From positions 7,584-71,583 of IMG/VR virus record IMGVR_UViG_3300014204_007706: a stretch of DNA of 64,000 nt; one strand, given 5' to 3'. Below the pieces are notes generated by a model. It was not told the DNA's origin and did not search any database. It was given only the letters and a program-made list of their open reading frames with translations. A program made the position numbers and the translations under genes. Of the stretch, positions 22,291-61,571 are shown piece by piece (the stretch's first letter is position 1; every line of letters starts with the position of its first letter). This DNA is from a virus. Lineage: Duplodnaviria > Caudoviricetes.

Positions 22291-22665
22291 ATGAAGTACC
22301 CACACCCACAGATCATACCAAAGCAGCTTAATGGTATTATCCACAAAAGTCCCTTGGAACAGATGAAACAGTTTGTTAAAATTCAGGGCGCTAGCGGAAA
22401 TTGGGATTATGACCCCTATATGTTAGGAATCTACAACGGCCTGGAACTATGTTTGTCATCACTTGAAAAGCGTAACCCTGTTTTTAAAGATCCACCAAAA
22501 GTTTGGGGATTTGAAAAGGAGCCTATACATGACGTACTTGGAGCTAATGGCAGCATACAATCTTCAGAAGAAAAAATTATTAGTGGAACCAACGCTGAGT
22601 CAGAACCTGTGCAAGCTCCCTCCGGTGGAGCAGGGGGCGTACTTCCTGGACATAAGGTTCTTTAA
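22291..22665 (+). CDS. Hypothetical protein carrying HPQIIPK motif
   Basis: 124-aa ORF starting 1 nt after the helicase stop. Confidence 0.6.
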   Translation: MKYPHPQIIPKQLNGIIHKSPLEQMKQFVKIQGASGNWDYDPYMLGIYNGLELCLSSLEKRNPVFKDPPKVWGFEKEPIHDVLGANGSIQSSEEKIISGTNAESEPVQAPSGGAGGVLPGHKVL

Positions 22666-22690
22666 TTCCAAACTCTCTTACAAAGAGAAC

Positions 22691-23170
22691 ATGGAGGTCA
22701 AGCTATACCAGGCCAAGCTGTTGGGCCAGGAAGGACACTTAATATATTTTGGGGATATCAAAAACAACATGCTGTATCAGCGGGCGGAGCTTCGTGACGG
22801 GGAGTACTCTACCTACCTGCAGGGAGGGCTCGTGGAAAACTCGCCGGGTTTTGCTCGCAAGTTTAAATTCCACAAAGATCACTACGTGGTAAAGACATAC
22901 TGTGGTGGAAAACTTTTTATGGTGCTTAATTTGTCGTATAATATACTTGCTGAGAAGCTGTCTAAAGTTTTTGCACAACACGGACCGCGTTTTGGTAAAA
23001 GTTTTTACCAAGTACGGGCGTATGACTCCGGTGCTTCTGCACAGCTTATCAGCAGAACGAAGTTGTTAGGAGATATGGAGATACTGACAATATTGGAGAA
23101 GGCAGATATACAGGTGCAGGTTCTTCTTAATGCACCCGGGAACCAAACGGCCGTTCTTAGTGTGAGGTAA
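22691..23170 (+). CDS. Hypothetical protein
   Basis: Start moved to ATG 22691 to remove overlap with the previous gene. Confidence 0.55.
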   Translation: MEVKLYQAKLLGQEGHLIYFGDIKNNMLYQRAELRDGEYSTYLQGGLVENSPGFARKFKFHKDHYVVKTYCGGKLFMVLNLSYNILAEKLSKVFAQHGPRFGKSFYQVRAYDSGASAQLISRTKLLGDMEILTILEKADIQVQVLLNAPGNQTAVLSVR

Positions 23171-23171
23171 C

Positions 23172-23750
23172 ATGGCGATAGTAATAAAAGAAACTGTGGG
23201 CGTGTATATTGTAAACCCGCAAGATAGGTTTTATAAGCGAGCGTACAAAGCCAAAAACATAAAAAAATTTTTGGCCTCAATAAAGCAGCCACATACGGTT
23301 AAGTACCTTACGGTGCCAAACATCTATAAGATTAAGCTCGCGGACATTACACCACTGACAAAGACGTTGAATATTATAGTTATTCCGTCAAACACATTTT
23401 TCTTTGACTTGTTCATACACAGCGGGCACATTGTTATGGTGGTATCGTTAGATACAGCCGACTGGCGATACTCACACGGGATTTACTGTCAGTCGCTAAC
23501 ACTCGTACGTAGGTATCTTGGGGGGTTGCCGGTGGATATACTGGAGGGTTCGATGTACCGGCGCATGAAGCCGGAAGGAAAGGCCATAATCCTGGCCAGC
23601 ATGGTGGATATAAAAAAGTTTGAGTTTTTTAGCAAAATATACTTACGAATTTTAAAGATAAAGCTTGACAGAAAAATTAAAGATGCTATAATAAGGGTGT
23701 TGGTTCTAAAAAAGAATAAATACATACTATACTCTAAGGAGTCGGCCTAA
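23172..23750 (+). CDS. Hypothetical protein
   Basis: 192-aa ORF with GAGG RBS. Confidence 0.55.
   Translation: MAIVIKETVGVYIVNPQDRFYKRAYKAKNIKKFLASIKQPHTVKYLTVPNIYKIKLADITPLTKTLNIIVIPSNTFFFDLFIHSGHIVMVVSLDTADWRYSHGIYCQSLTLVRRYLGGLPVDILEGSMYRRMKPEGKAIILASMVDIKKFEFFSKIYLRILKIKLDRKIKDAIIRVLVLKKNKYILYSKESA
23665..23692 (+). promoter_or_regulatory. Sigma-70-like promoter upstream of the helicase-loader gene
   Basis: TTGACA-16nt-TATAAT with TG extension. Confidence 0.5.
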
Positions 23751-24464
23751 ATGACATGTCCAAAATGTAATGACTTAGGCTATCTTGAGGATCGCGCACA
23801 TAACGCAATGGTAAGATGGTGTGACTGTCCTGCGGGTAGACGCGTCTATAAACTGCAGTGGGATAAAAAGCTCGAAGACGCTGGAATACCTTTAGAATTT
23901 TGGAATTTAAGTTTCAACGATTTTTGTCCCCAACAGGGGTTTAAGTCCCACTTAGTATTCATGCGTGATCTGGAATTCTTTCTTAAAAACATTGAGACGC
24001 ACCGGGCCGAAGGAACTATGTGGTTAATATGCGGCGAGTCCGGCGTTGGTAAAACTTTGGGTGCCGCTTGCATACTGAGACAAGCCATACGCAGGGATTA
24101 TAAGGCTAAGTATACGGTGTGGACTACCATAGTGGACGCCACACTGAGCACCTTTGAGAAGGACATTTTAGAAGATATACTGGACGTAGATTTTCTTGTA
24201 ATAGATGACTTAGGTAATGATAAAATAAACGTGAACACTAAGTCAAATTACTCCGCCGACTTACTGGAGAAAATAATAAAACCGCGCTACAGCAATAAGC
24301 GTCCTACCATCTTAGTTTCTTCTAAGCAGTACAAGGACTTAATACCAAAGTATCCTATTTTGCAACACATGATTCCTGATGAATGGCGCTCGTACGTTAC
24401 CGGTGAAAGTTTTAGAACAAAGAAGATAGCGATAAAGCCTCCATCGCCGCCAAAACAAGCCTAA
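23751..24464 (+). CDS. DnaC/IstB-like AAA+ helicase loader with N-terminal Zn-binding motif
   Basis: CPKC...CDC; Walker A GESGVGKT; Walker B FLVIDDLG; precedes the DnaB-like gene. Confidence 0.85.
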   Translation: MTCPKCNDLGYLEDRAHNAMVRWCDCPAGRRVYKLQWDKKLEDAGIPLEFWNLSFNDFCPQQGFKSHLVFMRDLEFFLKNIETHRAEGTMWLICGESGVGKTLGAACILRQAIRRDYKAKYTVWTTIVDATLSTFEKDILEDILDVDFLVIDDLGNDKINVNTKSNYSADLLEKIIKPRYSNKRPTILVSSKQYKDLIPKYPILQHMIPDEWRSYVTGESFRTKKIAIKPPSPPKQA

Positions 24465-24484
24465 CCTAACCTGAAGGGAGATAT

Positions 24485-25828
24485 ATGCTGGATATAGAAA
24501 AGTTAGTCTTACAGTATGCATTAGTTGTTCCAGGAACTACTAACGAACTGCTCTCTGCGGGCATAGACTCTTCATTCTTTTTGAACGTAACAAACAGAAT
24601 TGTAGCGGGCTCCTTATTTGACCACTTTAAGTTATATGGTCAACCTATTTCTGCCGGCGCATTGCGTATGAAATTATTGCAATTGCAAGTTCCACCCGCG
24701 ACCGCAGAGGAGTATCTAAGCTTTGATACCGGAGCTGTTGTAGATTTTCAGATAGACTGGTTGATTTCAGAACTTCGCGCGCATAAAAAGAAAAACATTA
24801 TTGAAAGTGGTATCCAAGAAGCTATAATGAGTCTTCGCGGTACGGATCCGCTGTCTGCAGAATCAAACCTACAGCGTACAATTTCTGAGTTATCCAGACT
24901 TAATACGTCCAATAAGCTGGTTTCAAATTTAAATGACGAAATTGGCTCGATTGTTTCCGGACTTAAACTTCCAAAACAGGAGAACTTTTTTCTGACTGGC
25001 TACGCCGAGATGGATGACGCCACAGGAGGATTTCTTCCTGGATGGCTGGTCCTCTTAGCAGCGCTCCCTAAAATAGGCAAGTCACGTACTTTGGTAAATA
25101 TGGTATGTAACTATGTTCGGCGCGGGCAAAACGTTCTTGTTTTTTCTCTTGAAATTGCTAAGGAGCAGTATATTAATCTGTGCTTAAGCTGTTTCACGCG
25201 TACACCCTACGCACATGTAGAAAAACATATGCTAACTCCTGAAGAAGACCAGAAAATGGCGGAAATTACCACGCTTCTGCAAACGTCTTACGGAAAGCTG
25301 GATATCGTGGATACTTTAGGCAGTTGCACACCCACAGACATACAAAGCTGGATTAACAAACAACAGCAGGAAAAAGGTATTAAATACGACATCATAATTG
25401 TAGACCACGCTTCTATGATGCGCCCTGACCTGCCTACAGGTAAGGATCATTTAGACCAGAGTCAAATAGCTTTGGATTTAAAATCTATGGCGCGTAAAAA
25501 TAACCAGGTGTTTTTAGTAGCTTTGCAGCGTAAGAACGACGAAGCCAGAACACGACGTGCTGTTAAGAAGGACGACGAAACACCTGATGCGGGTGGAGAG
25601 TCCATAGGAAGGTCTTTCACGTGGTACCAGCTCGGTGACATCGTTATGATTATACAGAACGACCGGCCTGACGGTTTAGCTATTTCAACATTAAAATTTA
25701 GCGTAACCTCACGATGGGGCGCTTGTACGTCCTTCGCTTTAATTAAAGATTTTAACACTACCGCCGTACTTTCAATAAAAGATAATCCTCAGATGAAGGG
25801 TATGTGGGACGACGGTACACTCGGATAA
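24485..25828 (+). CDS. dnaB: DnaB-like replicative helicase
   Basis: LAALPKIGKS, FSLEI, IIIVDH, VALQR motifs. Confidence 0.85.
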   Translation: MLDIEKLVLQYALVVPGTTNELLSAGIDSSFFLNVTNRIVAGSLFDHFKLYGQPISAGALRMKLLQLQVPPATAEEYLSFDTGAVVDFQIDWLISELRAHKKKNIIESGIQEAIMSLRGTDPLSAESNLQRTISELSRLNTSNKLVSNLNDEIGSIVSGLKLPKQENFFLTGYAEMDDATGGFLPGWLVLLAALPKIGKSRTLVNMVCNYVRRGQNVLVFSLEIAKEQYINLCLSCFTRTPYAHVEKHMLTPEEDQKMAEITTLLQTSYGKLDIVDTLGSCTPTDIQSWINKQQQEKGIKYDIIIVDHASMMRPDLPTGKDHLDQSQIALDLKSMARKNNQVFLVALQRKNDEARTRRAVKKDDETPDAGGESIGRSFTWYQLGDIVMIIQNDRPDGLAISTLKFSVTSRWGACTSFALIKDFNTTAVLSIKDNPQMKGMWDDGTLG

Positions 25829-25843
25829 TTCCAGGAGACTCGC

Positions 25844-27841
25844 ATGAAAATAACTAATAAGTTTGGAGATATTTTGGATTATAGTAAAGACGATCTTCGT
25901 AGTTCTATAGAAAAAGCCTTTCGTATGTCTGAAAATTCAGTTATTGATGAAGTCGTGGACGAACTTACTGAGCAAGTTACCACAAAACTTAAGGCTCTTA
26001 AACCTATCACAACGGATATAGTGTCTTCGGTCGTGGAAGAAGTTTTGCGCGAAGGCAGCTACTTTGGTGTTTTTGAACAGTACCGGACACATCAGCAGCT
26101 GAAAGCTAACTTACAAGCTTCTGCAGGTGTACGCAATGTCTTTAACAAATACCTCGATAAGTCCGCGTGGGAAATTAATGAGAACGCAAACATGTCTTAC
26201 TCACTCCAAGGATTAAATCATGCAATAATACGGGGAGTAATTGAAAAGCACTGGCTGGAGAAAATATATCCTGAAAAAGTTGCCATGGCATACCGTGAAG
26301 GTTTTATCCATATACACGATTTAGACGCTCTATCCGCATATTGCTGCGGATGGGATTTGCAAGATTTACTCACGCGTGGATTCGGCGGAGTCCCCGGAAA
26401 AATTTACTCCGGGCCGCCAAAGCACCTATCTGCAGCGCTCGGCCAGTTAGTAAATTTTTTATTTACACTACAAGGTGAAATCGCAGGGGCTGTAGCAGTG
26501 TCTAATGTTGATACGTACATGGCGCCTTTTATTGCACGTGATAAGCTGAGCTACAAGGAAGTTAAACAGGCCGTACAGGAATTTATTTACAACATGAATG
26601 TACCAACACGCGTGGGGTTTCAGCCGCCCTTTTCTAATGTTACATTAGACTTAACCATACCTAAGCACTTGAAAAATACGCCTATAATTATCGGAGGATT
26701 GCCTCAAGAGGAAACTTATGGTGAGTTCCAGGCAGAAGCCGATATGTTTAACAAAGCATTTTTTGAAGTTATGTCCGAAGGTGATGCACATGGACGCATA
26801 TTCACATTTCCTATACCGACGGTTAACATTACAAAAAACTTCGACTGGGAAAATCCGGCATTAAATATTTTGTGGGATGTTACTGCTAAATACGGTACAG
26901 CTTACTTTGCAAATTTTATTAACTCGGACATGGACCCGTCAGAAACCAGGTCTATGTGCTGCCGTCTAAAACTGAGTTTGCGGGAGATTCACAAGCGTCA
27001 TGGCGGGTTATTTGGGTCCGGAAGTCTTACAGGCAGTATTGGTGTGGTTACGCTAAACTTACCAATGCTTGCCTATGAAGCGAAAGGTTCCAGAGATAAG
27101 TTCTATACTAACATCGAGAAGTATCTTGAAATAGCTAGCAGGTCTTTAGAAATAAAGAGAGACGTTATCGAGGCTTTTACTACGCAAGGATTATATCCTT
27201 ATACTAAAACTTACTTAGAAAGTTCATATGCGCGGGATAAAAAATACTGGGGGAGCCACTTTTCAACAATAGGTCTCATTGGTATGTACGAAGCTGCCGT
27301 GGCGCTAGGGATAGATTATACTTCCGCAGAAGGTCGTAAGTTTGCCGAGACCGTGCTGAAGTTTATGAATCGTAAACTTGTGTACTTTCAGAATACTACA
27401 GGAAATTTTTATAACTTAGAGGCTACTCCGGCAGAAGGAGCTTCGTACAAACTGGCGTTGGCTGCAAAAAAGAAATACCCGGATATTTTTACGTCCGGTG
27501 TTGCCACGCCTTATTTTACAAACTCAACAACACTACCTGTCGGGCACAGCACTGACATCTTTAAAATACTAGAACACCAAGATACGCTGCAAACATTATA
27601 TTCGGGTGGTACAGTTTTGCATGCTTACTTAGGAGAAAAAATTACAGGCGACCAGTCTAAACTTATGGTAAAAAAGATATTAAGTAATTATAAAATACCT
27701 TACTTATCAATTACACCAACTTTTTCTGTGTGTCCTGCACACGGGTATTTGGCAGGGGAGCATTCACTATGTCCGAAGTGTACTGAAGAGAAAGACACGT
27801 TAATAAACAGAATTGCCCAACTTAAGGAGGAACTAAAGTGA
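25844..27841 (+). CDS. nrdD: Class III (anaerobic) ribonucleotide reductase with ATP-cone; glycyl-radical tail absent
   Basis: ATP-cone; IHIHDL, YCCGW, SMCCRL, EATPAEG, TPTFSVCPAHGY...CPKC; no C-terminal RxxGY. Confidence 0.9.
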   Translation: MKITNKFGDILDYSKDDLRSSIEKAFRMSENSVIDEVVDELTEQVTTKLKALKPITTDIVSSVVEEVLREGSYFGVFEQYRTHQQLKANLQASAGVRNVFNKYLDKSAWEINENANMSYSLQGLNHAIIRGVIEKHWLEKIYPEKVAMAYREGFIHIHDLDALSAYCCGWDLQDLLTRGFGGVPGKIYSGPPKHLSAALGQLVNFLFTLQGEIAGAVAVSNVDTYMAPFIARDKLSYKEVKQAVQEFIYNMNVPTRVGFQPPFSNVTLDLTIPKHLKNTPIIIGGLPQEETYGEFQAEADMFNKAFFEVMSEGDAHGRIFTFPIPTVNITKNFDWENPALNILWDVTAKYGTAYFANFINSDMDPSETRSMCCRLKLSLREIHKRHGGLFGSGSLTGSIGVVTLNLPMLAYEAKGSRDKFYTNIEKYLEIASRSLEIKRDVIEAFTTQGLYPYTKTYLESSYARDKKYWGSHFSTIGLIGMYEAAVALGIDYTSAEGRKFAETVLKFMNRKLVYFQNTTGNFYNLEATPAEGASYKLALAAKKKYPDIFTSGVATPYFTNSTTLPVGHSTDIFKILEHQDTLQTLYSGGTVLHAYLGEKITGDQSKLMVKKILSNYKIPYLSITPTFSVCPAHGYLAGEHSLCPKCTEEKDTLINRIAQLKEELK

Positions 27842-30687: not shown

Positions 30688-30689
30688 CA

Positions 30690-37871: not shown

Positions 37872-37900
37872 TTGACAAATTACAGCCTTTCTGTTATAGT
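37872..37900 (+). promoter_or_regulatory. Sigma-70-type promoter
   Basis: TTGACA-17nt-TATAGT just upstream of tRNA-Leu. Confidence 0.75.
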
Positions 37901-38480: not shown

Positions 38481-38617
38481 AGATCCATTCATGAATAGTA
38501 AACGTGGGCATTACATATATAAGTTAAAACAGTTGTATCATCATAGGCAGACTGTAAGAAAGCATGACTCTATATACTGGAGCCGCTTTGCAAACTGGAT
38601 TTGTGAGGAGAGGCCAA

Positions 38618-38941
38618 ATGGGCTGGAAAAACCTAAAGAAGTTTGATATTATAGGAATAACTAAGAGACGTATGCGGCAGTGTATGAAGGACAATCCGGA
38701 GTTGCGTTTACAAAATAATCCGCAAAGGATAGCAAAAAAGCGGAGGGTGTTGCCGTGGAATTCTCCAGGAACATATTCTGTGAGCGTTGACTTAGCTGCT
38801 GGTCCCATACAGGTGGGCTCCACTGTAGTGTTAACAAATACGGGTAAAGTAAAGGTGACACTAGATGCACATACAAAACCCTTTGGAATTGCGTTGTCCA
38901 CAAGTGATTCCAAAGGTACGGTCACAATCCAGGTCTATTAA
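38618..38941 (+). CDS. PQRIxK-motif protein with possible DUF2190-like (capsid cement) C-terminal domain
   Basis: GAGGAG RBS; NPQRIAK; GPIQVGSTVVL...PFGIAL...VTIQV beta-rich pattern. Confidence 0.55.
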   Translation: MGWKNLKKFDIIGITKRRMRQCMKDNPELRLQNNPQRIAKKRRVLPWNSPGTYSVSVDLAAGPIQVGSTVVLTNTGKVKVTLDAHTKPFGIALSTSDSKGTVTIQVY

Positions 38942-39332
38942 GAGCGAACGTATCAGGGTTCCCACATTTGAAATCGCGGCCAATCCGAAGATAAAGCTTA
39001 AGGATTTGGCGCTGCGGAAGTTTTCGATACCAGGAAGATGGAAGCACGAGTGTCGTAATCCACAAAGGATACCCAAGAAGCGCCGGCCAGGGTTCAGAAA
39101 TCAGCGGCCATATAGTCCTTGGTTAGACCAGAAAGCAGGAAAGCTTATATCAGATAGGACGCTTGCGCAGGAAATGGGACTAGATTATGACGCAGAAATG
39201 TTTAAACTATTGAAGGAGAATTCGCAAGATGGGAAAAGTAATACTATATGTGGGCAAGGAACAGAAAGTGCTACACGGAACGTGGAAGACAAAGACGGGA
39301 GCCCTGCTAACAGGGGAAGCTCTAAAAAGTGA
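38865..39332 (+). CDS. Basic protein with two PQxIPK motifs
   Basis: AAGGTGA RBS; CPQVIPK and NPQRIPK; 77-nt overlap with the previous ORF. Confidence 0.55.
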   Translation: MHIQNPLELRCPQVIPKVRSQSRSIKSERIRVPTFEIAANPKIKLKDLALRKFSIPGRWKHECRNPQRIPKKRRPGFRNQRPYSPWLDQKAGKLISDRTLAQEMGLDYDAEMFKLLKENSQDGKSNTICGQGTESATRNVEDKDGSPANRGSSKK

Positions 39333-49319: not shown

Positions 49320-49393
49320 GTCGGGTTCGTTTAAAAGCAGGACAATGGGTTTTCAATCCATGAACAGCGGAGCGTTACCGCTACCCGACACCA
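49320..49393 (+). tRNA. tRNA-Glu(TTC), non-canonical T-loop AGCGTTA
   Basis: GTCGGGT/ACCCGAC; ATGGG-TTTTCAA-TCCAT; AGCGG/CCGCT T-stem; CCA. Confidence 0.82.
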
Positions 49394-49578: not shown

Positions 49579-50196
49579 ATGAAGGAAAAAGTAATGCCGG
49601 ATACGTCCGGAAAACTAAGAATGCACGTCGAAGTAGAATGCACCTACTGCAGAAAGTTATTTTGGAGACCTAAGCGGTTCTTAGATAGACACAAGAGGGC
49701 TTATTGTTCACCAAAGTGCGCTCACGCAGCACAGCAACAGCGTGTCGTTGTAACGTGTTATCACTGCGGAAAGAGTTTTACAAGAACTCAAACCAAGCTT
49801 AAGGGTAGCCGTAGTGGATTTTATTTTTGCTCTCGTGGGTGTAAAGACGCGTCACAGCGTGTGGAAAACAATGGACATAATTGGAACCCGCGTTATGTTA
49901 AGAATACGGGTAGGTACACATACCGTACCATTGCTTGGAGAAATTACCCACATAAATGTGCTTGTTGCGACTACGCTGAGCACGAAGAGGGGCTGGAAGT
50001 TCACCACATTGATGGTAATAGAAGGAACAACAAATTAGAAAACTTAATCATTTTGTGCGCTCTTTGCCACAGACTTGTAACAAATGGCGTTTATACTATA
50101 ATAGATAGAAAAATGGTTAAAAATACTGAAGAGTTAAAGTCTTTGACAAGATGTTTAGACGCTTATGATAAGATTACGGGCCGCGGGACTGCATAG
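49579..50196 (+). CDS. HNH endonuclease with N-terminal Zn-finger repeats
   Basis: CxxC...YCSxxC repeats; CACC...LEVHHIDGNRRNNKLENLIILCALCH. Confidence 0.88.
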   Translation: MKEKVMPDTSGKLRMHVEVECTYCRKLFWRPKRFLDRHKRAYCSPKCAHAAQQQRVVVTCYHCGKSFTRTQTKLKGSRSGFYFCSRGCKDASQRVENNGHNWNPRYVKNTGRYTYRTIAWRNYPHKCACCDYAEHEEGLEVHHIDGNRRNNKLENLIILCALCHRLVTNGVYTIIDRKMVKNTEELKSLTRCLDAYDKITGRGTA

Positions 50197-50256
50197 GGTG
50201 GTCATCTCACTTGCAATGAGAAAGTCAGCCGGGAGCGTTACCCGGGCGGTCCACCA
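50178..50256 (+). tRNA. tRNA-Ala(TGC), non-canonical T-loop AGCGTTA
   Basis: G3-U70 in GGGCCGC/GCGGTCC; TCTCA-CTTGCAA-TGAGA; A73, CCA. Confidence 0.82.
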
Positions 50257-50274
50257 AATATAGAAGGGAGATTT

Positions 50275-50541
50275 ATGCCACTGACCGATGACGTCATCGA
50301 AAGCCTAAATCTTTCTAAAGATTATAATGGGTATACGCGCCAATTTACCACCAATGAAGGAAGGCTAGCTTTACGCGTGGTGGTTTCACCGAAAAGGCGT
50401 AGGTGCCCGCAGCGTATTTCAAAGCATCAGTACATCATGAAGGGAACAACAAGTGGGCGAATGAGTTCAATGTCGGCAAATTTCGCGATGCTGTATGGCA
50501 TGGGCCGACCAACGAAGTTGGGGGACCTAAATGGGATCTGA
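50275..50541 (+). CDS. Small protein with CPQRISK motif
   Basis: 88-aa ORF, GGGAG RBS. Confidence 0.6.
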   Translation: MPLTDDVIESLNLSKDYNGYTRQFTTNEGRLALRVVVSPKRRRCPQRISKHQYIMKGTTSGRMSSMSANFAMLYGMGRPTKLGDLNGI

Positions 50542-50755
50542 CGAGGTTATAGTAGATAATGGTAAAGTCTCAAAAGACTTTGTGGTAGGCCAGGTTTACT
50601 GGAGTCCCTTATCGGGCAATGCAGAGGGAATAACTGTAGAAGTAAAGAAGAAGCGCCATAAGCATCCTCAAGCAATACTTCGGCGCAGTAAAATGTCTAC
50701 AGGTTTTAAAAAATATGGAAACTTCGTGAACAACTTGGACAACTCGAGATTTTAA
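50531..50755 (+). CDS. Small protein with HPQAILR motif variant
   Basis: 74-aa ORF overlapping previous stop. Confidence 0.55.
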   Translation: MGSDEVIVDNGKVSKDFVVGQVYWSPLSGNAEGITVEVKKKRHKHPQAILRRSKMSTGFKKYGNFVNNLDNSRF

Positions 50756-50757
50756 GC

Positions 50758-50786
50758 TTGACATTATAAGTAATTTTTGGTATGCT
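50758..50786 (+). promoter_or_regulatory. Sigma-70-type promoter for tmRNA
   Basis: TTGACA-17nt-TATGCT. Confidence 0.65.
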
Positions 50787-50828
50787 GTATATAGCGGTGC
50801 ACGTTGGACTTATAGTTCTTTCTCAGGC

Positions 50829-51184
50829 GGGGGCGACCGGATTCGACAGGGTTGCCGACAGATTAGAAGCGTGCCGAGACTCGCAATCGTTATCGCGGGA
50901 ACAAACAATTGCTAACCCAGACCTAGCACTTCAGGCTGCGTAAGTAATGCTCTGCTCAGTAGGCTGACTCATTGCAGCTGAACATGGAGAGTGTATAAAT
51001 TAGAATGCGCCAATGGGTTCGGAGAATGACGCCTATAGTAATCCGTAGCACAACTAAGAGTTAGGCGAAAGCGCGGAATGACTGCTAACAAACACCGCGC
51101 CGGAAATCATGATGTTAGACTACGCACGTAGAAGGAATCGATACGTTACCATGGACCTGGGTTCAATTCCCAGCGCCTCCACCA
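50829..51184 (+). ncRNA. ssrA: tmRNA; tag (A)ANPDLALQAA
   Basis: 5' GGGGGCGACCGGATTCGAC; 3' GGGTTCAATTCCCAGCGCCTCCACCA with G3-U; tag reading frame 50911-50943. Confidence 0.95.
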
Positions 51185-51188
51185 AAAA

Positions 51189-51390
51189 TGCCCGACATGA
51201 TGCCGGCTTCGGCCGAGACATCGAGTACTGCATCCTCAGGTAGTGCCCAGAAATGGGTATAAAGTAGACCGGAGAATTCTAGAATATCCGGGCGACTGCT
51301 CAACGACGAGGCATTCACTTAGGTAGGTAGCCTAGAGCTACTGGACGGTGATTTATAAGGCAGGCGGTGCAACTCCGCTTAGGGCACCGA
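51189..51390 (+). ncRNA. tRNA-like structured RNA of unknown function
   Basis: Acceptor-like TGCCCGA/TAGGGCA, T-arm GGCGG-TGCAACT-CCGCT, internal hairpins. Confidence 0.5.
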
Positions 51391-52045: not shown

Positions 52046-52204
52046 GGAGGAGATCCCGGGTTCGAGCCCCGGCCTGCGGAGGACCCCTTTTGGGTGCGCA
52101 GATGTGGTGTAGTGGATAACACACCTCCAAAACACGGAGACGCGGGTTCGAATCCCGCTGGAGGCCCCTGGGCCTCTGTCGTCTAGAGGCTAGGATACCG
52201 TGCC
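52046..52204 (+). ncRNA. Two tandem circularly permuted, anticodon-less tRNA-like units
   Basis: Each unit has the 3' half (anticodon-stem strand, T-arm, acceptor strand) before the 5' half (acceptor strand, D-arm, anticodon-stem strand); GGAGG/CCTCC and CACGG/CCGTG pair perfectly. Confidence 0.8.
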
Positions 52205-52613: not shown

Positions 52614-52652
52614 GTAGTCGTAATAAAAAAAGAATGAAAGTGGTGACGCTCA

Positions 52653-52865
52653 GTGGGAAAACTCATATCAGCCATGCTTACAGCCTTACTAATTGCCGTC
52701 GGTATTTCTTTAGCCTGTCTAGTTTACGCCCTTCCTATTATGTTGCTATGGAACTGGCTCATGCCCAAAATCTTCGGTCTCATTACTATTAATTTCTGGG
52801 AAGCCCTTGGTCTTTGTTGCTTAGCAGCGTTTTTATTCAAAAGTTCAAATACAAAATCCGAATGA
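52653..52865 (+). CDS. Small membrane protein
   Basis: Two hydrophobic segments; PIMLLWNWLMPKIFGLITINFWEALGL. Confidence 0.65.
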   Translation: MGKLISAMLTALLIAVGISLACLVYALPIMLLWNWLMPKIFGLITINFWEALGLCCLAAFLFKSSNTKSE

Positions 52866-52879
52866 AAGGAGGTATACTT

Positions 52880-53473: not shown

Positions 53474-53482
53474 GGAGGCAAC

Positions 53483-54502: not shown

Positions 54503-54527
54503 ACATTCTCTTGAAAGGAGAAAAACT

Positions 54528-56075
54528 ATGAACAAACTGACAGGTTTTGCGAAAGGGTTGATAGCGGTAGTTATCGGTGCGGTCATCTTCGGCGGATGGA
54601 TGTATGCAAAGAAATCCGGCTTGATGGACAAGATCGCTCCGGTAAGCAAGGAAATGGCTTCAGCAGGTGCTGTAGTTAAGACGTCCGGGGGCGGCGGTAA
54701 GCTGAACAGGCCCATCCGCGTGGGTATTAACACGTGGAGCGGATTTGCCGGCATTGTGTACTGGAACAAAGGCATGAAGGCAAACACGGAGTCAAAGTTT
54801 TACACGAATGACGGGCTCCAGGTAGAGATACTCCAGATAGACGACATTCAGTCAGGTAAGAACTCCTGGATAGCGAACAAGATTGACGTATGGTATTGCA
54901 CGGTAGATTCCTTCCCGGTTGATGTTGGCGGGATAAAGTCGCAGCAGCCTAAGATTATTCTTCAGACAGACTGGTCACGCGGCGGAGACGCTATAGTAGT
55001 AGCGCCCGGAATTAACACGGTAGCAGACTTAAAAGGTAAGACTGTGGCATGCGCAGAAGGTTCACCTTCACACACTTTCTTACTGTGGATGCTTAAGGCG
55101 AATGAGATGCTTATGACAGATATAAAGCTTATTAAGGTAGCGAATGGTATTGATGCGGCAGCAGCTTTCAAAGCCGGCAAAGTAGACGCGGCAGTATGCT
55201 GGTCACCGGATGACCTGGATTGCGTAGACGCCATAAAAGGCGCGAAGGTTCTAATTAACACGAAAAAGGCGTCGAACATCATAGCGGACGCTATTTATGC
55301 AAAGAAATCCTTTATCGAGAATTATCCGAAAAGCGTTGAGGCCCTGGTAAAGGGATGGCTTGAAGCGAACGCGGCTATCAATGGTTCAGAGTCGGCAAAG
55401 ACAGAAGCGACCAAACTTTTCGCCACGAACTTTAATGTGCCGGAAGTGGTTGTGGACGTAAGGAACGCCAGGCTTTGTACATACGGGGACAACATGAATT
55501 TCTTTGAGATGAACCCGGCCTACGCAGGTGTAACCGGCAGGAGCTTGTATGAGGAAATGTCAAACGAATATGGCAACATCGGACTTGCAGGAACGGACCT
55601 TCCTTACTGGAGAGAGATCGCAGACGTGTCCATACTTAGGGGACTATCCAGTGTTCTGACCGGCCCGGAGCAGTCAGCTGAAGGCAAAGCAACATTTGCG
55701 CCGGTTGCCAACGCAGACTCCCTGCAGACGATTTCGTCAAAGAAACTTTCAATATCGTTTGAGTCCGGCTCGGCCATACTGGACCAGAACGCTCAGTATG
55801 TCATCCAGATGGGCTTTGGCAGCTTTGTTAAGTCCTTTGCCCGGTCCAGGATTAGGATTGAAGGAAACACAGACAGCGTAGGCGGCGATGAAGTAAACCA
55901 GCCGCTTTCAGAAAGACGCGCCCAGGCTGTGGCCAACTTTCTGATTAAGACCTACAAACTCGATTCGAACAGGATCCTTGTAGTGGGCAACGGATCGAAA
56001 AAGCCGGTAGCTTCGAACGATACTTCGGATGGACGCGCAAAGAACAGAAGGACAGACTTTGAGATAGTAGAATAA
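54528..56075 (+). CDS. NMT1/THI5-type ABC substrate-binding protein fused to an OmpA-like peptidoglycan-binding domain
   Basis: N-terminal TM; DWSRGGDAIV, LKGKTVA; C-terminal ISFESGSA...IEGNTDSVG...LSERRAQAV...NRRTDF. Confidence 0.88.
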   Translation: MNKLTGFAKGLIAVVIGAVIFGGWMYAKKSGLMDKIAPVSKEMASAGAVVKTSGGGGKLNRPIRVGINTWSGFAGIVYWNKGMKANTESKFYTNDGLQVEILQIDDIQSGKNSWIANKIDVWYCTVDSFPVDVGGIKSQQPKIILQTDWSRGGDAIVVAPGINTVADLKGKTVACAEGSPSHTFLLWMLKANEMLMTDIKLIKVANGIDAAAAFKAGKVDAAVCWSPDDLDCVDAIKGAKVLINTKKASNIIADAIYAKKSFIENYPKSVEALVKGWLEANAAINGSESAKTEATKLFATNFNVPEVVVDVRNARLCTYGDNMNFFEMNPAYAGVTGRSLYEEMSNEYGNIGLAGTDLPYWREIADVSILRGLSSVLTGPEQSAEGKATFAPVANADSLQTISSKKLSISFESGSAILDQNAQYVIQMGFGSFVKSFARSRIRIEGNTDSVGGDEVNQPLSERRAQAVANFLIKTYKLDSNRILVVGNGSKKPVASNDTSDGRAKNRRTDFEIVE

Positions 56076-56086
56076 CATAACCGCTG

Positions 56087-56118
56087 TAGGGGGTGGGCAG
56101 AGCGTCGCCCACCTCCTA
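56087..56118 (+). other. GC-rich intercistronic hairpin (likely mRNA stabiliser, no U-tract)
   Basis: TAGGGGGTGGGC/GCCCACCTCCTA 12-bp stem between binding-protein and permease genes. Confidence 0.6.
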
Positions 56119-56139
56119 TGGCATATAAGGAGGATATGC

Positions 56140-56937
56140 ATGAATAAATTTTTTGCCTTACGCGGAGAATTACCCAAGAAAACCGCAACCATTATATTTT
56201 ACGCCGGGCTGGCCACGCTTGTGTTCTTGTGGTGGGCTATTACGGCGTTCACAAAGATCAGCCCTACACTGCTACCGTCACCGGCTAAGGTGCTGGCTTC
56301 ATTCAATGAGCTTCATTTCCAAGACGCATTGGTTCGCAATACCATATATTCTGTAAAACTTAATCTTCTTGGTTATATGGAAGCCATTGCAGTTGCGGTC
56401 CCTATAGGATTCCTTATTGGACTCTTTCCATTATTCAGGGATATGTTCCGCCGGCACCTGGACGCTATCAGGTTTATACCGCTGACCGCGGTGACCGGGC
56501 TCTTCATAGCGTGGTTCGGTATCGAGGACAACATGAAAGTACAGTTTCTGGCATTTGGTATCATTGTATACCTGCTGCCTGTAGTTGTGCAAAGGATCCA
56601 GGAAGTTGATAACGTCTATGCTCAAACCGTGCAGACACTCTCAACCAAACAGTGGCATATAATTAAAAAGGTGTTCATTCCGGCGGTACTGTCAAAGGTG
56701 TACGAGGACATCCGCGTTCTTGTGGCCATATCCTGGACGTACATTATCGTGGCTGAAATGGTAAACAAGTCCGGTGGTATCGGTGCTATGGCGTACCTCG
56801 CCGCCAGGCAAAGCCGCGTGGATAAGGTATTCGCGCTGCTCGTGGTGATAATACTTATCGGAATAATACAGGACAGACTGTTCATGCTGCTTGACAGGGT
56901 ACTCTTTCCGTACAAGTATAAAAAGGAGAAAGTATGA
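56140..56937 (+). CDS. NitT/TauT-family ABC permease
   Basis: LLPSPAKV, IRFIPLTA, VFIPAVL, SWTYIIVAEM; multiple TM helices. Confidence 0.9.
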   Translation: MNKFFALRGELPKKTATIIFYAGLATLVFLWWAITAFTKISPTLLPSPAKVLASFNELHFQDALVRNTIYSVKLNLLGYMEAIAVAVPIGFLIGLFPLFRDMFRRHLDAIRFIPLTAVTGLFIAWFGIEDNMKVQFLAFGIIVYLLPVVVQRIQEVDNVYAQTVQTLSTKQWHIIKKVFIPAVLSKVYEDIRVLVAISWTYIIVAEMVNKSGGIGAMAYLAARQSRVDKVFALLVVIILIGIIQDRLFMLLDRVLFPYKYKKEKV

Positions 56938-57308
56938 ATAAAATACTAATGGGTTACGCTATTTTTGTTTTTGTTTTTCTTAGCTTTGCTCTTGTTGTAA
57001 ACGCAGGCGTACCGGGCCTGTCAGAGTTCGGTGACATCTCGGGCCAGGAAAAAGCCGCCATTAATGCATTTGCAACAAAGACTGACGCAAGCGTAGCGAA
57101 TTTGCAAAAACGGGTATTGGCGCTGGAAATGTGGGCGAACATGAAGGACCAGGACCCGCGGGTTCAGATACAACAGCTGCAGGCGCAGGTAAAAGAATTA
57201 CAGGCCATCGTAGCGCCTTTGCAGGCAGAGAATGAGCAGCTTAAGAAAGAAAAGACTATCCTATTACAGACGCTGAAGGTTTACCAGACAGCGCCGAAGG
57301 AGAAGTAA
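56934..57308 (+). CDS. Exported/membrane-anchored coiled-coil protein
   Basis: N-terminal signal/TM then heptad-rich segment. Confidence 0.6.
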   Translation: MNKILMGYAIFVFVFLSFALVVNAGVPGLSEFGDISGQEKAAINAFATKTDASVANLQKRVLALEMWANMKDQDPRVQIQQLQAQVKELQAIVAPLQAENEQLKKEKTILLQTLKVYQTAPKEK

Positions 57309-57309
57309 T

Positions 57310-58140
57310 ATGGAAAACGTAAAATTTGATAATGACAAAGACGTACCCGATATAATTGAGCTGCAAAAGATCAACCAGTCCTACGACGGTGGTAAGACCT
57401 TTATCATAAAGGACCTCGATTTGCTCCTGGAGAATGAGCCTGGAGAGAACCAGGTTATTTCAATCTTGGGCGCGTCCGGATGCGGAAAATCTACGCTCTT
57501 GCGCTACGTGAGCGGTCTGCAGGTTCCTACAAGCGGCGAAGTAAAGCTCTACGGCAAGCCTATCGACTATAAGACAATAGTCGGCATGGTCTTCCAGAAG
57601 TATTCCAGTCTGCCCTGGCTCACTGTTAAAGAGAACGTAGCTTTGGGTCTGGAGTTCCAGGGAGTTTCAGAGTCAGAACGTAACCAGAGGGCTTTAGAGA
57701 TGGTAGACCTTGTGGGCCTCACCGGTCATGAGAACAAATATGCAGAGTATCCTACACTCTCTGGCGGACAGCTGCAGCGTGTAGCTATCGCGAGAAGCTT
57801 GCTAGCGAACCCGAAGATCCTGCTTATGGATGAACCTTTCGGAGCCCTGGACATCAACACCAGGTTGAACATGCAGGAACTGCTTATGTCCATCTTAAAG
57901 AAAGTTAAGGACATGGCGATTATCTTTGTGACGCATGACATCACCGAGGCTGTGTACATTTCGGATGATATTTACATGATGTCGGCCAATCCCGGGCAGA
58001 TCGTCGAGCATGTGAAGGTACCATTCGAGGGCCGGTCACACTTACTCAAAAGGGATATGAAGTTCGTTAAACTGGTATACGAGATTGAGGATAAAATGAA
58101 AGAGATTAGCGCCGCGTCAGCTAAAAGGAAGGTGGCATAA
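57310..58140 (+). CDS. NitT/TauT-family ABC ATPase
   Basis: GASGCGKST, LSGGQLQR, LLMDEPFGALD, FVTHD. Confidence 0.95.
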   Translation: MENVKFDNDKDVPDIIELQKINQSYDGGKTFIIKDLDLLLENEPGENQVISILGASGCGKSTLLRYVSGLQVPTSGEVKLYGKPIDYKTIVGMVFQKYSSLPWLTVKENVALGLEFQGVSESERNQRALEMVDLVGLTGHENKYAEYPTLSGGQLQRVAIARSLLANPKILLMDEPFGALDINTRLNMQELLMSILKKVKDMAIIFVTHDITEAVYISDDIYMMSANPGQIVEHVKVPFEGRSHLLKRDMKFVKLVYEIEDKMKEISAASAKRKVA

Positions 58141-58141
58141 C

Positions 58142-58624
58142 ATGCAAACAAAATCAGAACTGTTTGGATTTGTAATAGAATTTAATGAGCAGGCAAATCA
58201 GTGGGTTATTACTGATGTTGGCGCTGAGGTATACAGAGACGTAGATCGTAGTAAATGTCTTGCTTGGGTTAAGCGTAATAAGAATAGAAATGTTGAGAAG
58301 ATCTCGGCGTATAGCAGCCACTTTAGTTTTGGTGAGATTACATCCGTTGCAGATGAAAACATAAATTATCCCCACGTGTGGTTTACGATAATAGATAAAG
58401 AGTATGGGAATAGCCGGCGTAAGGAACGCCTTGAATCTCTGTATCCAGCTACGGAGGAAAACAAAGATATAGTGACACGGAGATGTGAACTGAATAAACA
58501 GATTGAAGCGATAGAAAATCAGCGTGATAAGTTGCAGCTCAAAGGTGAGTTCATTTTGAAAGATGGTAGAGTTATGGTGAAACCTAAGAAAGCCCTCAAA
58601 GAGAAAAAGTCCCAGGAGGTATAA
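58142..58624 (+). CDS. Hypothetical protein
   Basis: 160-aa ORF in operon. Confidence 0.6.
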   Translation: MQTKSELFGFVIEFNEQANQWVITDVGAEVYRDVDRSKCLAWVKRNKNRNVEKISAYSSHFSFGEITSVADENINYPHVWFTIIDKEYGNSRRKERLESLYPATEENKDIVTRRCELNKQIEAIENQRDKLQLKGEFILKDGRVMVKPKKALKEKKSQEV

Positions 58625-58625
58625 C

Positions 58626-59186
58626 ATGAAATTTTTCTACATGTATGGAAATATCGGGACACACAAATCTACGTACGCCCGCTACATAGCGGATAGGCAG
58701 GGTACGTTGATTCTGGACGACGACGAGCTGTATCATGTACTTTGCAATAAATCCTGGAAGTTTTATTATAATAAAGGCATTCAGGAGGTAGTTCTGCAAA
58801 TGTTTCAGGGGGCCGTGTCCAAGCTGCAGGAGAATGCTGTAAAAGACGCAGTGGTGGCTACAGCATCCCTGGATCCGTTTATGTTTTCTCTAGACATAAA
58901 ACCCCCAAACCAGTTATTTATAATAGTTACGGGTAATGGAACCAGGGAATTCAGCCTGGAAAACCGCAGGAAAAACCACCGGGGAGTATCCCAGGAAGAA
59001 TGGGCTATGGTGTACGACCAGGAAGCCGCAAAGATTCGGACCGGCTTGGCCAGTCTAAAAGAAACACTCGAAGATAAGACCTGGCTTGCTGAAACGGTAC
59101 TCTGGCTTACGGACCCCTTGGATGAAGAATTAAGTAAGAAAGAGATTGACAAATTCCTGGATAACGTATATAATGTACAAAACTGA
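58626..59186 (+). CDS. P-loop (AAA_33-like) kinase
   Basis: MYGNIGTHKSTYARY degenerate Walker A, ILDDDEL; GGAGG RBS. Confidence 0.6.
   Translation: MKFFYMYGNIGTHKSTYARYIADRQGTLILDDDELYHVLCNKSWKFYYNKGIQEVVLQMFQGAVSKLQENAVKDAVVATASLDPFMFSLDIKPPNQLFIIVTGNGTREFSLENRRKNHRGVSQEEWAMVYDQEAAKIRTGLASLKETLEDKTWLAETVLWLTDPLDEELSKKEIDKFLDNVYNVQN
59146..59174 (+). promoter_or_regulatory. Consensus sigma-70 promoter
   Basis: TTGACA-17nt-TATAAT. Confidence 0.8.
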
Positions 59187-59201
59187 AAAAGGAGGTGCCG
59201 T

Positions 59202-59501
59202 ATGAAAACACTTGTCGAGACGTTAAGGACTAAGACAAAGGTTGGCTACATCGAGCATCCTTTTTCGTATGTATCTGTTGACGGACTTAAGAAGCTTACT
59301 TTCGAGCAGGCTTACGCTGAGTTCATTGACGTGCTTTACGGAGAAGGCAAAGCTGTTGTACACAATGGCAAGGCTATCATGCTGTTTAAGAAGAAAGCTT
59401 TCGTTGGTACACTCGATGCGACCGATCCGCTGGTCATCCCACATGATGGCTGGAAAAAGGTAGAAAACTTAAGGCACGAGTTCTTACTGCTTATTAAGTA
59501 A
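59202..59501 (+). CDS. Hypothetical protein
   Basis: 99-aa ORF, AAGGAGGTG RBS. Confidence 0.65.
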   Translation: MKTLVETLRTKTKVGYIEHPFSYVSVDGLKKLTFEQAYAEFIDVLYGEGKAVVHNGKAIMLFKKKAFVGTLDATDPLVIPHDGWKKVENLRHEFLLLIK

Positions 59502-59510
59502 ACTTTAGGT

Positions 59511-59587
59511 AGGGCCGTAGCTCAGTTGATTAGAGCGCCCGCCTGTCACGTGGGAGGCCGCGGGTTTGAGCCCCGTCGGCCCTGCCA
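59511..59587 (+). tRNA. tRNA-Asp(GTC)
   Basis: AGGGCCG/CGGCCCT, CCCGC-CTGTCAC-GTGGG, G73, CCA. Confidence 0.92.
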
Positions 59588-59603
59588 AAGAAAAAGGAAG
59601 GAG

Positions 59604-59873
59604 ATGATTCTAATGGGTAAGCTGATAGAAAACATGACATTAGCCGAACTGGAAAAAGCAAATCCTTCCAACGATGACTTAGAAGCATCTGGACGCAGAG
59701 TTATGGTCAAGGTCTTTGCTTCAAGAAGTAAATACATGAACGCCAAGGATATCAAGGCTTTAATAGCCGCCGGCGTTGGTACGCGCTCAGATCTTGAAGA
59801 AGCGTCAGACATGGAGAACATTATACCCGTGATTGACGCAATAATAGAAAGCAAGCTTAAAGGAAACGCATGA
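59604..59873 (+). CDS. Hypothetical protein
   Basis: Start moved out of the tRNA (ATG 59604 or 59613). Confidence 0.6.
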   Translation: MILMGKLIENMTLAELEKANPSNDDLEASGRRVMVKVFASRSKYMNAKDIKALIAAGVGTRSDLEEASDMENIIPVIDAIIESKLKGNA

Positions 59874-59881
59874 ACATTAGT

Positions 59882-59956
59882 GCGAGTGTAGTTCAATGGT
59901 CAGAACAGACGCTTGATAAGCGTCAGACAGTGGTTCAATTCCACTCTCTCGTACCA
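59882..59956 (+). tRNA. tRNA-Ile(GAT)
   Basis: GACGC-TTGATAA-GCGTC, A73, CCA. Confidence 0.9.
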
Positions 59957-59960
59957 TTTT

Positions 59961-60036
59961 GGGCATGTAACTCATCAGCTAGAGTACCTCACTTTTAATG
60001 AGGGAGTAGAGAGGGCGGCACTCTCCATGCCTACCA
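59961..60036 (+). tRNA. tRNA-Lys(TTT), non-canonical T-loop GGCGGCA
   Basis: GGGCATG/CATGCCT; CCTCA-CTTTTAA-TGAGG; GAGAG/CTCTC T-stem. Confidence 0.82.
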
Positions 60037-60037
60037 A

Positions 60038-60112
60038 GGATCTGTAGCTCAACAGTGGAGCAAGGCACTCATAATGCCGAGGTCGCAGGGGCAGCACCTG
60101 CCGGATCCACCA
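60038..60112 (+). tRNA. tRNA-Met/Ile2(CAT), non-canonical T-loop GGCAGCA
   Basis: GGATCTG/CGGATCC; loop CTCATAA; GCAGG/CCTGC T-stem. Confidence 0.8.
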
Positions 60113-60128
60113 AATGAAAGGAGTCGCC

Positions 60129-60428
60129 GTGAATCCGAATGACGTAGATGTAATATTATCTTCCGATAAAAAATACTGGATATTCCTATGGAGACGCGAT
60201 AATAGCGTCTTGGCAAAAATATCTATAGATGATATACTCGGTATAGAACTTAGGAATGACGACTCCGTACGTGAGATGCTAACAAAGAACGAATTTGGAG
60301 AGCTGCTGCGACATGACATGGAAACTCATGGTATAGGCCAGTCACTGAAAGTGTTGCTTGGATCAAAATTTGACGAGCTACAGCAAAAACATCGGTGTCC
60401 ACAGCGCATATCCAAGAGGGTGGTTTAG
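60129..60428 (+). CDS. Small protein with C-terminal CPQRISK motif
   Basis: GTG 60129 after AAAGGAG. Confidence 0.6.
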   Translation: MNPNDVDVILSSDKKYWIFLWRRDNSVLAKISIDDILGIELRNDDSVREMLTKNEFGELLRHDMETHGIGQSLKVLLGSKFDELQQKHRCPQRISKRVV

Positions 60429-60506
60429 CATGGAACAAAATGAACGTATATAATGTACAAAACTGAAGAGCATGAGGCCCAGGTTCAATTCCTGGGGTCA
60501 CCACCA
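60419..60506 (+). pseudogene. Degenerate tRNA: acceptor stem, T-arm and CCA intact, D/anticodon arms replaced
   Basis: GGTGGTT/GGTCACC, CCAGG-TTCAATT-CCTGG, ACCA; interior carries a 25-bp copy of 59163-59187. Confidence 0.6.
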
Positions 60507-60522
60507 AATGAAAGGAGCGTCT

Positions 60523-60912
60523 ATGCTATATGATGAGCAGTTTCATAAGCAGTTACGGGAAGAGGAAGCTGTGCACGAATTAGACAAACAAACTTCATAT
60601 GAAACCCGGCTGCACCCACGTAACCATCCACAGGCCAAGCTTCGCTGGGTTCGAAACCTATTTAAAAAACACCCGACGCCCGCCGTTATGCAACAAGCCG
60701 CTCTTGACCTTCTTGTATATGGTGAGGCATATCTTAAGGTGCCGATAACCGAGACGCGCATAACCCTGGCGGACGCCTACAATCCTTTACTTAACGAAAG
60801 TCATTGGTATACTCCGAGCTCCCGGAGACCGCACAATCCACAGCGGATCACAAAGCGGGGATGGCGTTGGAAAGACAATCGTGTTTACTATAGACAGCAA
60901 AAGGTGGTATAA
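60523..60912 (+). CDS. Protein with NPQRITK motif
   Basis: Start moved to ATG 60523 (AAAGGAG). Confidence 0.6.
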   Translation: MLYDEQFHKQLREEEAVHELDKQTSYETRLHPRNHPQAKLRWVRNLFKKHPTPAVMQQAALDLLVYGEAYLKVPITETRITLADAYNPLLNESHWYTPSSRRPHNPQRITKRGWRWKDNRVYYRQQKVV

Positions 60913-60918
60913 TACAAA

Positions 60919-61131
60919 ATGAATCCTTATACGAGGGATCTTGACATAAGCATTCCAGATATTGGACAAATAGAAGGGCGTATTTTACGTGGTTTGGGTG
61001 TTAAGAAACCCAACCCGCAGCGTATACCAAAAGTACGTTTGAAAACACGTTATAAGAATCTAGCGCACTCTTTTGCAGATATACTGAAGCACGGTTTGGA
61101 TTATAGCAGCCGTCCGCGGAAAGTGAAATAA
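60919..61131 (+). CDS. Small protein with NPQRIPK motif
   Basis: 70-aa ORF, TAATG coupling to next gene. Confidence 0.6.
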   Translation: MNPYTRDLDISIPDIGQIEGRILRGLGVKKPNPQRIPKVRLKTRYKNLAHSFADILKHGLDYSSRPRKVK

Positions 61132-61343
61132 TGCCTTACCTTCCTCTAGCGCGACTGGCTATGCAGCCCTTCTCTCCGTTGTACCAGGAGTCAAATCTTG
61201 TATCTCCCAGGTCTCACGAGAACGACGCGAGAATGCAGCGCGAACTTTATGGTTGCCGGCAGCGCATACCAAAGAACTGCTCCCTTGAACAAAGTAAGGA
61301 ACTAACAAGAATGTACACAAAGTGGCGCAGGGTGCATGCGTAA
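61131..61343 (+). CDS. Small protein with CRQRIPK motif
   Basis: 70-aa coupled ORF. Confidence 0.55.
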   Translation: MPYLPLARLAMQPFSPLYQESNLVSPRSHENDARMQRELYGCRQRIPKNCSLEQSKELTRMYTKWRRVHA

Positions 61344-61352
61344 GGAGGCGTC

Positions 61353-61571
61353 GTGGCCAAACGATCCAGGGAAGAGCAAGACGCCATAGAGGAATCCTTA
61401 GAGGCCGGAGATCTCTCCGGAGTTCCAGGTATGGTCCCAGACTATGACGCTGAGGATTGGCGAGTCTATGGAGATCCTGACTATGACCCCTACGAGTGTT
61501 ATTGGTGGAAACATAAGCGTAAATATGGAAGATGCCCTCAGGCAATAAGCAAACAAAGACTACCGTTCTAA
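61353..61571 (+). CDS. Small protein with CPQAISK motif
   Basis: 72-aa ORF, AAGGAGG RBS. Confidence 0.65.
   Translation: MAKRSREEQDAIEESLEAGDLSGVPGMVPDYDAEDWRVYGDPDYDPYECYWWKHKRKYGRCPQAISKQRLPF

Follow-up and report, generated by a model that had tools for sequence, protein, structure and literature searches.

The DNA analyzed here is a 64,000-nt window of a 71.6-kb contig from a tailed phage (Caudoviricetes; IMG/VR record IMGVR_UViG_3300014204_007706), and its subject is a seven-residue peptide motif, [C/N/H]-[P/R]-Q-x-I-x-[K/R], called here the tag, that recurs in a set of small phage proteins, called here the carriers (c1 to c10). Coordinates are given on the plus strand of the window unless stated otherwise. 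A sequence-only reading had reported eleven copies of this motif; all eleven are present, each at its position and in its reading frame, inside open frames of 70–155 codons. The ten carrier open reading frames (ORFs) also exist as described there, five of them being consecutive at 60114–61571.

Carrier c1 (22291–22665) has an H-type tag at 22303–22323 (residues 5–11), followed by a segment, residues 19–79 (22345–22527), that resembles the C-terminal half of SPO1 gp34.22; the next gene starts at 22529, so that 137 nt of it are covered by the frame of c1. The pair c2 (38564–38941) and c3 (38865–39332) overlaps by 77 nt (38865–38941), and the first tag of c3 lies in another frame of the end of the Dec-like domain of c2. 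In c2, a short stretch similar to the major capsid protein (MCP) precedes the tag (38717–38737), which is followed by a Dec/DUF2190-like piece at 38768–38935. Carrier c3 displays a first tag (38895–38915), an MCP piece (38937–39056, corresponding to MCP residues ~135–174), a second tag (39057–39077) and a piece of the portal C-terminal region (39123–39221). Next come c4 (50275–50541; tag 50404–50424) and c5 (50531–50755; tag 50663–50683, a K to R variant), for neither of which a parent protein was found.

The block of five starts with c6 (60114–60428), in which a copy of a scaffold-like domain (60141–60395) leads into the tag (60396–60416) and the stop codon comes three residues further on; its start is probably the GTG at 60129, with a Shine-Dalgarno sequence upstream. 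It continues with c7 (60472–60912; probable start 60523; tag 60835–60855), which shows only weak MCP- and portal-like stretches, and with c8 (60919–61131; tag 61012–61032), for which no parent protein was found. In c9 (61131–61343), a copy of an invariant N-terminal portal segment (61143–61250) is followed by a P to R variant of the tag (61254–61274), and in c10 (61353–61571) the tag (61533–61553) stands five residues before the stop. Two weak variants are present on the same strand: H-R-Q-T-V-R-K at 38542–38562, in a 51-aa ORF (38491–38646), and a variant with I to V and K to R at 51231–51251, in a 41-aa frame immediately 3′ of the transfer-messenger RNA (tmRNA) gene.

Conservation of the tag as a peptide

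A six-frame search with the pattern of the sequence-only reading returned the eleven copies on the plus strand and none on the minus strand. Such a frequency is far from that of a random background: over 60 second-order Markov simulations of the 71.6-kb contig, 0.35 copies were obtained on average and never more than 2. The last 123 bp of the window (63878–64000, the contig end) are 100% identical to one end of another IMG/VR contig, 3300014204_005796 (106.7 kb; locus L030), and this identical overlap indicates that the two contigs belong to one phage of at least 178 kb. The second contig displays seven matches to the pattern, all on the corresponding strand; with Q accepted as a first residue, six of the seven fit the tag, and of these six, three end consecutive mini-genes of 26, 33 and 87 codons. 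The phage encodes about 17 small carrier proteins. In a scan of IMG/VR, the pattern was found in 17 stretches which, besides those of the second contig, were single matches at chance level; five of these other contigs were searched over their whole length, and the tag was not enriched in any of them. A literature search on the motif and on the peptide strings gave nothing relevant.

Over the 17 copies, five of the seven tag residues are nearly invariant. The tags fall into three sub-types according to their first residue (C, N or H), which co-varies with positions 4 and 6, and this co-variation suggests that the copies derive from one another rather than from independent origins. Their place within the proteins is variable: two tags are N-terminal (only c1, at residue 5, and the first tag of c3, at residue 11), about five are internal and ten lie near or at the C-terminus. 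These ten are all within 40 residues of the C-terminus and five of them within 5 residues, with just three to five residues following the tag. Basic flanks had also been claimed, and K and R indeed make up 33–37% of the six residues on each side of the tag compared with 12% in the proteome. In three or four cases, the downstream K/R run is partly the Shine-Dalgarno site of the next gene. On the second contig (full-genome 118431–118825; L027:19348–19787, minus strand), the K/R codons that follow the tag (AAG AGG AGA AAG and similar) are the Shine-Dalgarno sequence of the next gene in three consecutive carriers.

The synonymous codon variation noticed in the sequence-only reading is real, and the information per base has a period of three: the first two codon positions of P, Q, I and K are rich in information, the third is poor, and the flanking DNA contains none. 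The four copies that share an identical N-type peptide have on average 16.2 of 21 bases in common, against 16.3 ± 1.4 expected for random synonymous codons drawn from the phage codon usage, and the two identical C-type copies behave in the same way. Since identical peptides share no more bases than random codons would, the synonymous sites are saturated and the peptide alone is conserved. Together with the period of three, this supports the earlier claim of selection on the peptide rather than on a DNA repeat, and the saturation excludes that the conservation is due to a DNA repeat, a recombination site or a recent transposition.

Several other identities were considered for the motif and rejected. 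The DNA does not resemble a tRNA 3′ half or an att-like sequence of such origin, as no T-loop lies upstream, and a Bacteroidota-type promoter on the reverse strand fails across the copies. At the peptide level, the tag does not match the consensus sequences of the PIP-box/beta-clamp motif, the AT-hook, SH3 ligands, the I-x-I motif of small heat-shock proteins (sHSP) or the sulfatase C-x-P-x-R sequon.

Pieces of virion proteins adjoining the tag

The head module of the phage, which comprises the terminase, the portal, a scaffold-like protein, a Dec-like protein and the MCP, lies on the second contig; a comparison with PHROGs confirmed which proteins are the MCP (E = 1e-56) and the portal (E = 5e-55). 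When the carriers were compared with all frames of the 178-kb genome, significant matches were found only to three proteins of this module: the MCP, the portal and the scaffold-like protein. Residues 25–64 of c3 match the MCP and its residues 87–119 the portal C-terminal region; residues 6–40 of c9 match the N-terminal portal segment that is invariant among the three phages compared (this phage and the two relatives described below); c6 matches one domain of the 835-aa scaffold-like protein, which is encoded between the portal and the MCP; and the 87-codon carrier of the second contig (g118562) matches the C-terminal domain of the same protein. A reverse search, in which 90 core family profiles were run against every frame, gave five matches in short ORFs, all of them tag carriers (E = 2e-9 and 3e-8 for the scaffold-like protein, 2e-7 for the MCP, 4e-7 and 5e-4 for the portal); the other significant matches were ordinary paralogues.

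Weaker cases add to these. The part of c2 that follows the tag resembles the N-terminal DUF2190-like domain of a 287-aa protein adjacent to the MCP (Pfam E = 0.003, pairwise E = 0.007), two carriers of the second contig have short stretches similar to the MCP C-terminus on both sides of the tag, and we group with them the similarity of c1 to SPO1 gp34.22 (E = 2e-7 to 2e-9). On the second contig, a 157-codon ORF (full-genome 93395–93976; L029:4191–4664, minus strand) resembles the E-loop/P-domain of the MCP (residues ~99–149, E = 0.008–0.05) and has no tag.

The sequence-only reading had held that, outside the motif, the carriers share no similarity. This stands between carriers: in the all-frame comparison, matches from one carrier to another were centred on the motif, with E values of 0.1 or worse, the exception being a short MCP-like stretch common to c2 and c3, and c6 and g118562, both derived from the scaffold-like protein, gave no alignment with each other. 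The carriers are not full-length paralogues of one another. The claim does not hold with regard to the rest of the genome, as parts of several carriers show homology to segments of head proteins of this same phage; we call these parts baits.

The boundary between bait and tag is sharp. The similarity stops zero or one residue short of the tag in c3, c6, c9 and the 87-codon carrier; it sets in beyond the tag in c1, in c2 and in the second half of c3. In the 87-codon carrier, the 33-residue C-terminal tail of the scaffold-like protein is replaced by the tag and four residues. Judged from these alignments, the homology of the baits to their parents is genuine and has the tag as its limit. Identity to the head proteins is about the same whichever of the three phages is compared (30–53%), which points to old or fast-evolving copies rather than recent duplicates; for four of the five baits, the source is the most conserved part of the parent.

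Lineage, islands and coding signals

The phage originates from a landfill metagenome, and an identical copy, showing no variation, is present in a groundwater run; among the runs listed as containing the phage, none is of RNA. It encodes at least 26 tRNAs (counting those added by Rfam) and a tmRNA, an anaerobic ribonucleotide reductase, a chaperonin, the RNA-repair enzymes RNA ligase, RtcB, DHH phosphoesterase and a CCA-adding-type enzyme, and endonucleases of the HNH and GIY-YIG types. A search with the MCP recovered a complete 150-kb relative, G007 (MCP 88% identical), and a 173-kb relative, G008 (69%); with regard to closer relatives, this search returned short contigs only. The tag pattern has no match in G007 and 2 + 2 matches in G008, which is the chance level, and neither relative has head-gene fragments outside its head module. 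All the carriers lie in regions missing from both relatives: in the case of c1, the first 238 nt are a clean insertion relative to G007, between two genes that are adjacent there. The tag and the carrier set are specific to this phage lineage. The portal gene of G007 (loci L046, ~92326–93377 of the contig) is itself interrupted after about residue 370 by ~1 kb of DNA, probably an intron or an intein/homing element.

The carriers are located between tRNA genes and the tmRNA gene, in islands that also contain RNA-repair genes and an AAA+ ATPase gene. Rfam detected four tRNA-like genes that ARAGORN had missed (49320–49390, 52098–52166, 59961–60033 and 60038–60109), the last of which ends 5 nt before c6, so that the block of five carriers is directly bounded by tRNA genes. 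The ATPase (L030:1684–2817, minus strand, outside the window) is a lineage-specific protein of 377 aa that combines a 150-residue N-domain, with an N-terminal C-x-x-C motif, and a Cdc48/VAT/BCS1-like ATPase module; its gene adjoins those of the RNA ligase, the DHH phosphoesterase, tRNAs and two tag carriers, and a search for its relatives found only itself. In two independent runs, contigs join position 50222 to 51157 and skip 934 nt that contain c4, c5 and most of the tmRNA gene (areas 50185–50243 and 51153–51184); the join is probably a cross-match with another tRNA-like gene, its sides being shorter than 30 nt and its loose ends tRNA-like.

Most carriers have a Shine-Dalgarno sequence at the correct spacing, and they are tightly packed in an operon-like manner. 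The annotated frame is the best of six by phage codon usage in 13 of the 17 carriers, with scores below those of core genes. In these respects, the carriers look like translated genes. Frames of such length would close under neutral decay to 30–50% identity. Consensus promoters of the sigma-70 type head the tRNA/carrier islands (12 of 12 consensus positions at 59146–59174 and 11 of 12 at 37872–37900), a signal from which early expression of the carriers by the host polymerase may be predicted.

Searches for orthologues of the carriers returned none. The only match of c7 among 5.8 billion proteins was to itself, with nothing in IMG/VR or in metagenome contigs; c6 likewise matched only itself among 1.84 billion cluster representatives, as did c1 in an orthologue search. 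Compared with longer proteins, c3 gave no match, and c4, c5 and two carriers of the second contig gave nothing meaningful in tblastn searches against cultured phages.

A proposed bait and handle, and the competing explanations

That the tag is an element acting at the DNA level, such as a recombination site, the target of a homing endonuclease or the scar left by a mobile cassette at the joint between captured pieces of genes, is extremely unlikely. Its position at fragment junctions, the HNH and GIY-YIG endonuclease genes that adjoin two carrier groups and the clean insertion of c1 fit such an element, but the conservation limited to codon positions 1 and 2, the chance level of base sharing among identical peptides, the placement of every copy in frame and on one strand and the unconserved flanking DNA all argue against it, as does the absence of contigs joining at a tag in four sequencing runs. 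Very improbable too is that the carriers are decaying relics, i.e. what is left of a second, old head module and of other gene duplicates, whose motif was inherited from one duplicated ancestor and now has no function. This would agree with their modest codon scores, with the GC content, which is 47–54% over part of the cluster and 44% in the whole genome, and with the failure to find homologues elsewhere; however, neutral decay to 30–50% identity would erase both an invariant tag and open frames, whereas five tag residues are nearly invariant beside saturated synonymous sites and frames of 70–155 codons are still open and preceded by Shine-Dalgarno sites. A distinctly unlikely explanation, again, is that the tag is a basic peptide binding nucleic acid (resembling an arginine-rich motif or an SPKK turn) and tethering the carriers to tRNA, to other phage RNAs or to DNA. 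The K/R content around the tag and the setting of the carriers amid tRNA, tmRNA and RNA-repair genes would be accounted for, but the invariant P, Q and I with a single K do not form a charge pattern, the basic flank is in part a Shine-Dalgarno overlap, and the head-protein pieces are left unexplained.

Two further explanations were considered. The tag could be a capsid-targeting or prohead-core signal, of the type of the T4 capsid targeting sequence or of encapsulin cargo peptides. The carriers would then enter the procapsid by means of the tag, the head pieces or both, to become internal or ejected proteins, the tag being possibly cut by the prohead protease. A tag common to otherwise unrelated small proteins, as in the T-even internal proteins, baits taken from capsid, portal, scaffold and Dec-like proteins, a carrier consisting of the scaffold C-terminal domain with its tail replaced by the tag, and the basic character of most carriers are all in line with this proposal. 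We nevertheless regard it as rather unlikely: the position of the tag is variable, the real MCP, portal and scaffold have no such motif (on the minus strand, a relaxed tag pattern occurs at chance level only and never in head proteins), sigma-70-type promoters precede the genes, which are on the replication/tRNA strand and not part of the head operon, and G007, in spite of its 88% identical MCP, has no carrier. Note that a single run of complex prediction with the MCP and a 33-residue tag carrier gave a score of 0.01, which weighs neither for nor against binding. Alternatively, the tag would be a sequon at which one enzyme cuts the multi-piece carriers or modifies the Q, the K or the first residue, with a cassette of GT2, methyltransferase and radical-SAM genes in the phage as a possible source of the enzyme. 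In c2 and c3 the tag does separate one piece from the next, as linkers separate beads on a string, Q and K, both invariant, are reactive residues, and the modification cassette, like the tag, is missing from G007. Against this, cutting would gain little in the five tags with just three to five residues after them, the radical-SAM/SPASM proteins score far under the cutoffs of all NCBIfam peptide maturase models, no protease was found besides the prohead protease, and the cassette is 4–27 kb away from the carriers; a sequon is therefore a decidedly doubtful explanation.

The sequence-only reading had proposed an addressing tag. The motif does behave as a shared tag at the peptide level, but a simple cargo label is less favoured than a two-part protein made of bait and handle: the position of the tag at the bait boundary and the lineage-specific set of carriers in tRNA/RNA-repair islands headed by strong sigma-70-type promoters argue for the latter. 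We tentatively prefer, at a little short of an even chance, the reading that the carriers are tagged two-part bait mini-proteins that share one docking handle and serve as adaptors or decoys in counter-defence or in phage competition. The peptide [C/N/H/Q]-P-Q-x-I-x-K, within a K/R-rich stretch of ~15 residues, would be a protein-level tag kept by purifying selection in about 17 accessory proteins. The bait part of many carriers would be a cut-out and since diverged copy of a piece of a conserved protein, mostly the phage's own MCP, portal, scaffold-like or Dec-like protein. The tag, joined directly to the bait end, would serve as the docking handle for one common putative reader; an unfoldase, a protease or another hub of host or phage origin may have this role, as may the prohead during its assembly. 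A factor that recognises the bait would thereby be coupled to the reader or titrated away. The Cdc48/VAT-type AAA+ ATPase is a candidate tag reader, as a lead only. As to purpose, a role in counter-defence or competition is favoured over capsid loading; this purpose, the binding of the tag by a reader and the identity of this reader are what we infer from the arrangement.

Several points weigh against bait and handle mini-proteins. Firm baits are found in four carriers only and moderate ones in two, and about ten carriers have no detectable parent protein. The baits keep the parent residue in 51% of the columns that are invariant among the three phages and in 23% of the variable columns (odds ratio 3.6), a comparison that is confounded because the parent proteins have changed too. 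The codon scores are near zero for c3, c4, c9 and c10; translation and expression of the carriers are predicted from signals in the DNA, and orthologues of the carriers are absent from every database searched. The basic flank of the tag is partly explained by the overlap with the Shine-Dalgarno site of the next gene, and the common reader of the tag is putative.

The combination of a seven-residue linear tag with cut-out pieces of virion proteins in a tailed phage is found in none of the closest described systems, and we found no published description of it in a phage. The capsid targeting sequence of T4, present in IPI, IPII, IPIII and Alt, is strictly N-terminal and ends in a gp21 protease site. 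It is likewise a short peptide shared by unrelated, lineage-variable small phage proteins with a link to head morphogenesis; the tag described here differs in being mostly C-terminal to the bait, variable in position, devoid of an evident protease motif and located outside the head operon. The scaffold mimics of satellites, SaPI CpmB and P4 Sid, are also small copies of a scaffold or capsid-binding element, in their case that of the helper, and redirect assembly. Unlike the carriers, they are encoded by the satellite, have no common tag and keep the capsid-binding tail, which the tag replaces here. SspB-type ClpX adaptors and basic C-terminal ClpX signals join a substrate-binding part to a short docking peptide for an unfoldase, basic and hydrophobic in composition, and the five tags at the extreme C-terminus may be compared with this peptide; there is no sequence match, and many tags here are internal. 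In Bodo saltans virus, 5′ fragments of essential viral genes are fused to ankyrin-repeat ORFs and have been proposed to be decoys for host defence (Deeg et al, 2018; PMC5871332). This case resembles the present one in that a single module is shared by pieces of essential genes of the virus itself, within accessory regions that have expanded (PMC5871332). It differs in that the module is a multi-repeat ankyrin domain in a eukaryotic virus, whereas here it is a seven-residue linear motif with basic flanks in a tailed phage; in both cases the function is a proposal.

A broader proposal would be that tailed phages have repeatedly evolved bait and handle mini-proteins, with a different tag each time: a conserved signature piece of a virion protein, expressed early, would bait a host or rival sensor, and the lineage-specific tag would pass the captured factor to a reader such as a Cdc48-like AAA+ ATPase, in a programmable and modular form of counter-defence or interference. 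We state this generalisation as a fairly improbable one. If the tag is a docking handle, the carriers form a modular kit, in which a new bait can be obtained by copying a piece of any protein beside the tag. Each bait would then mark a phage epitope that is recognised by something else in the cell, and the tag, with only seven residues, is suited to peptide pull-downs and could be reused as a tool. If true, this would be a new principle for phage counter-defence, for the exclusion of rivals or for the control of assembly.

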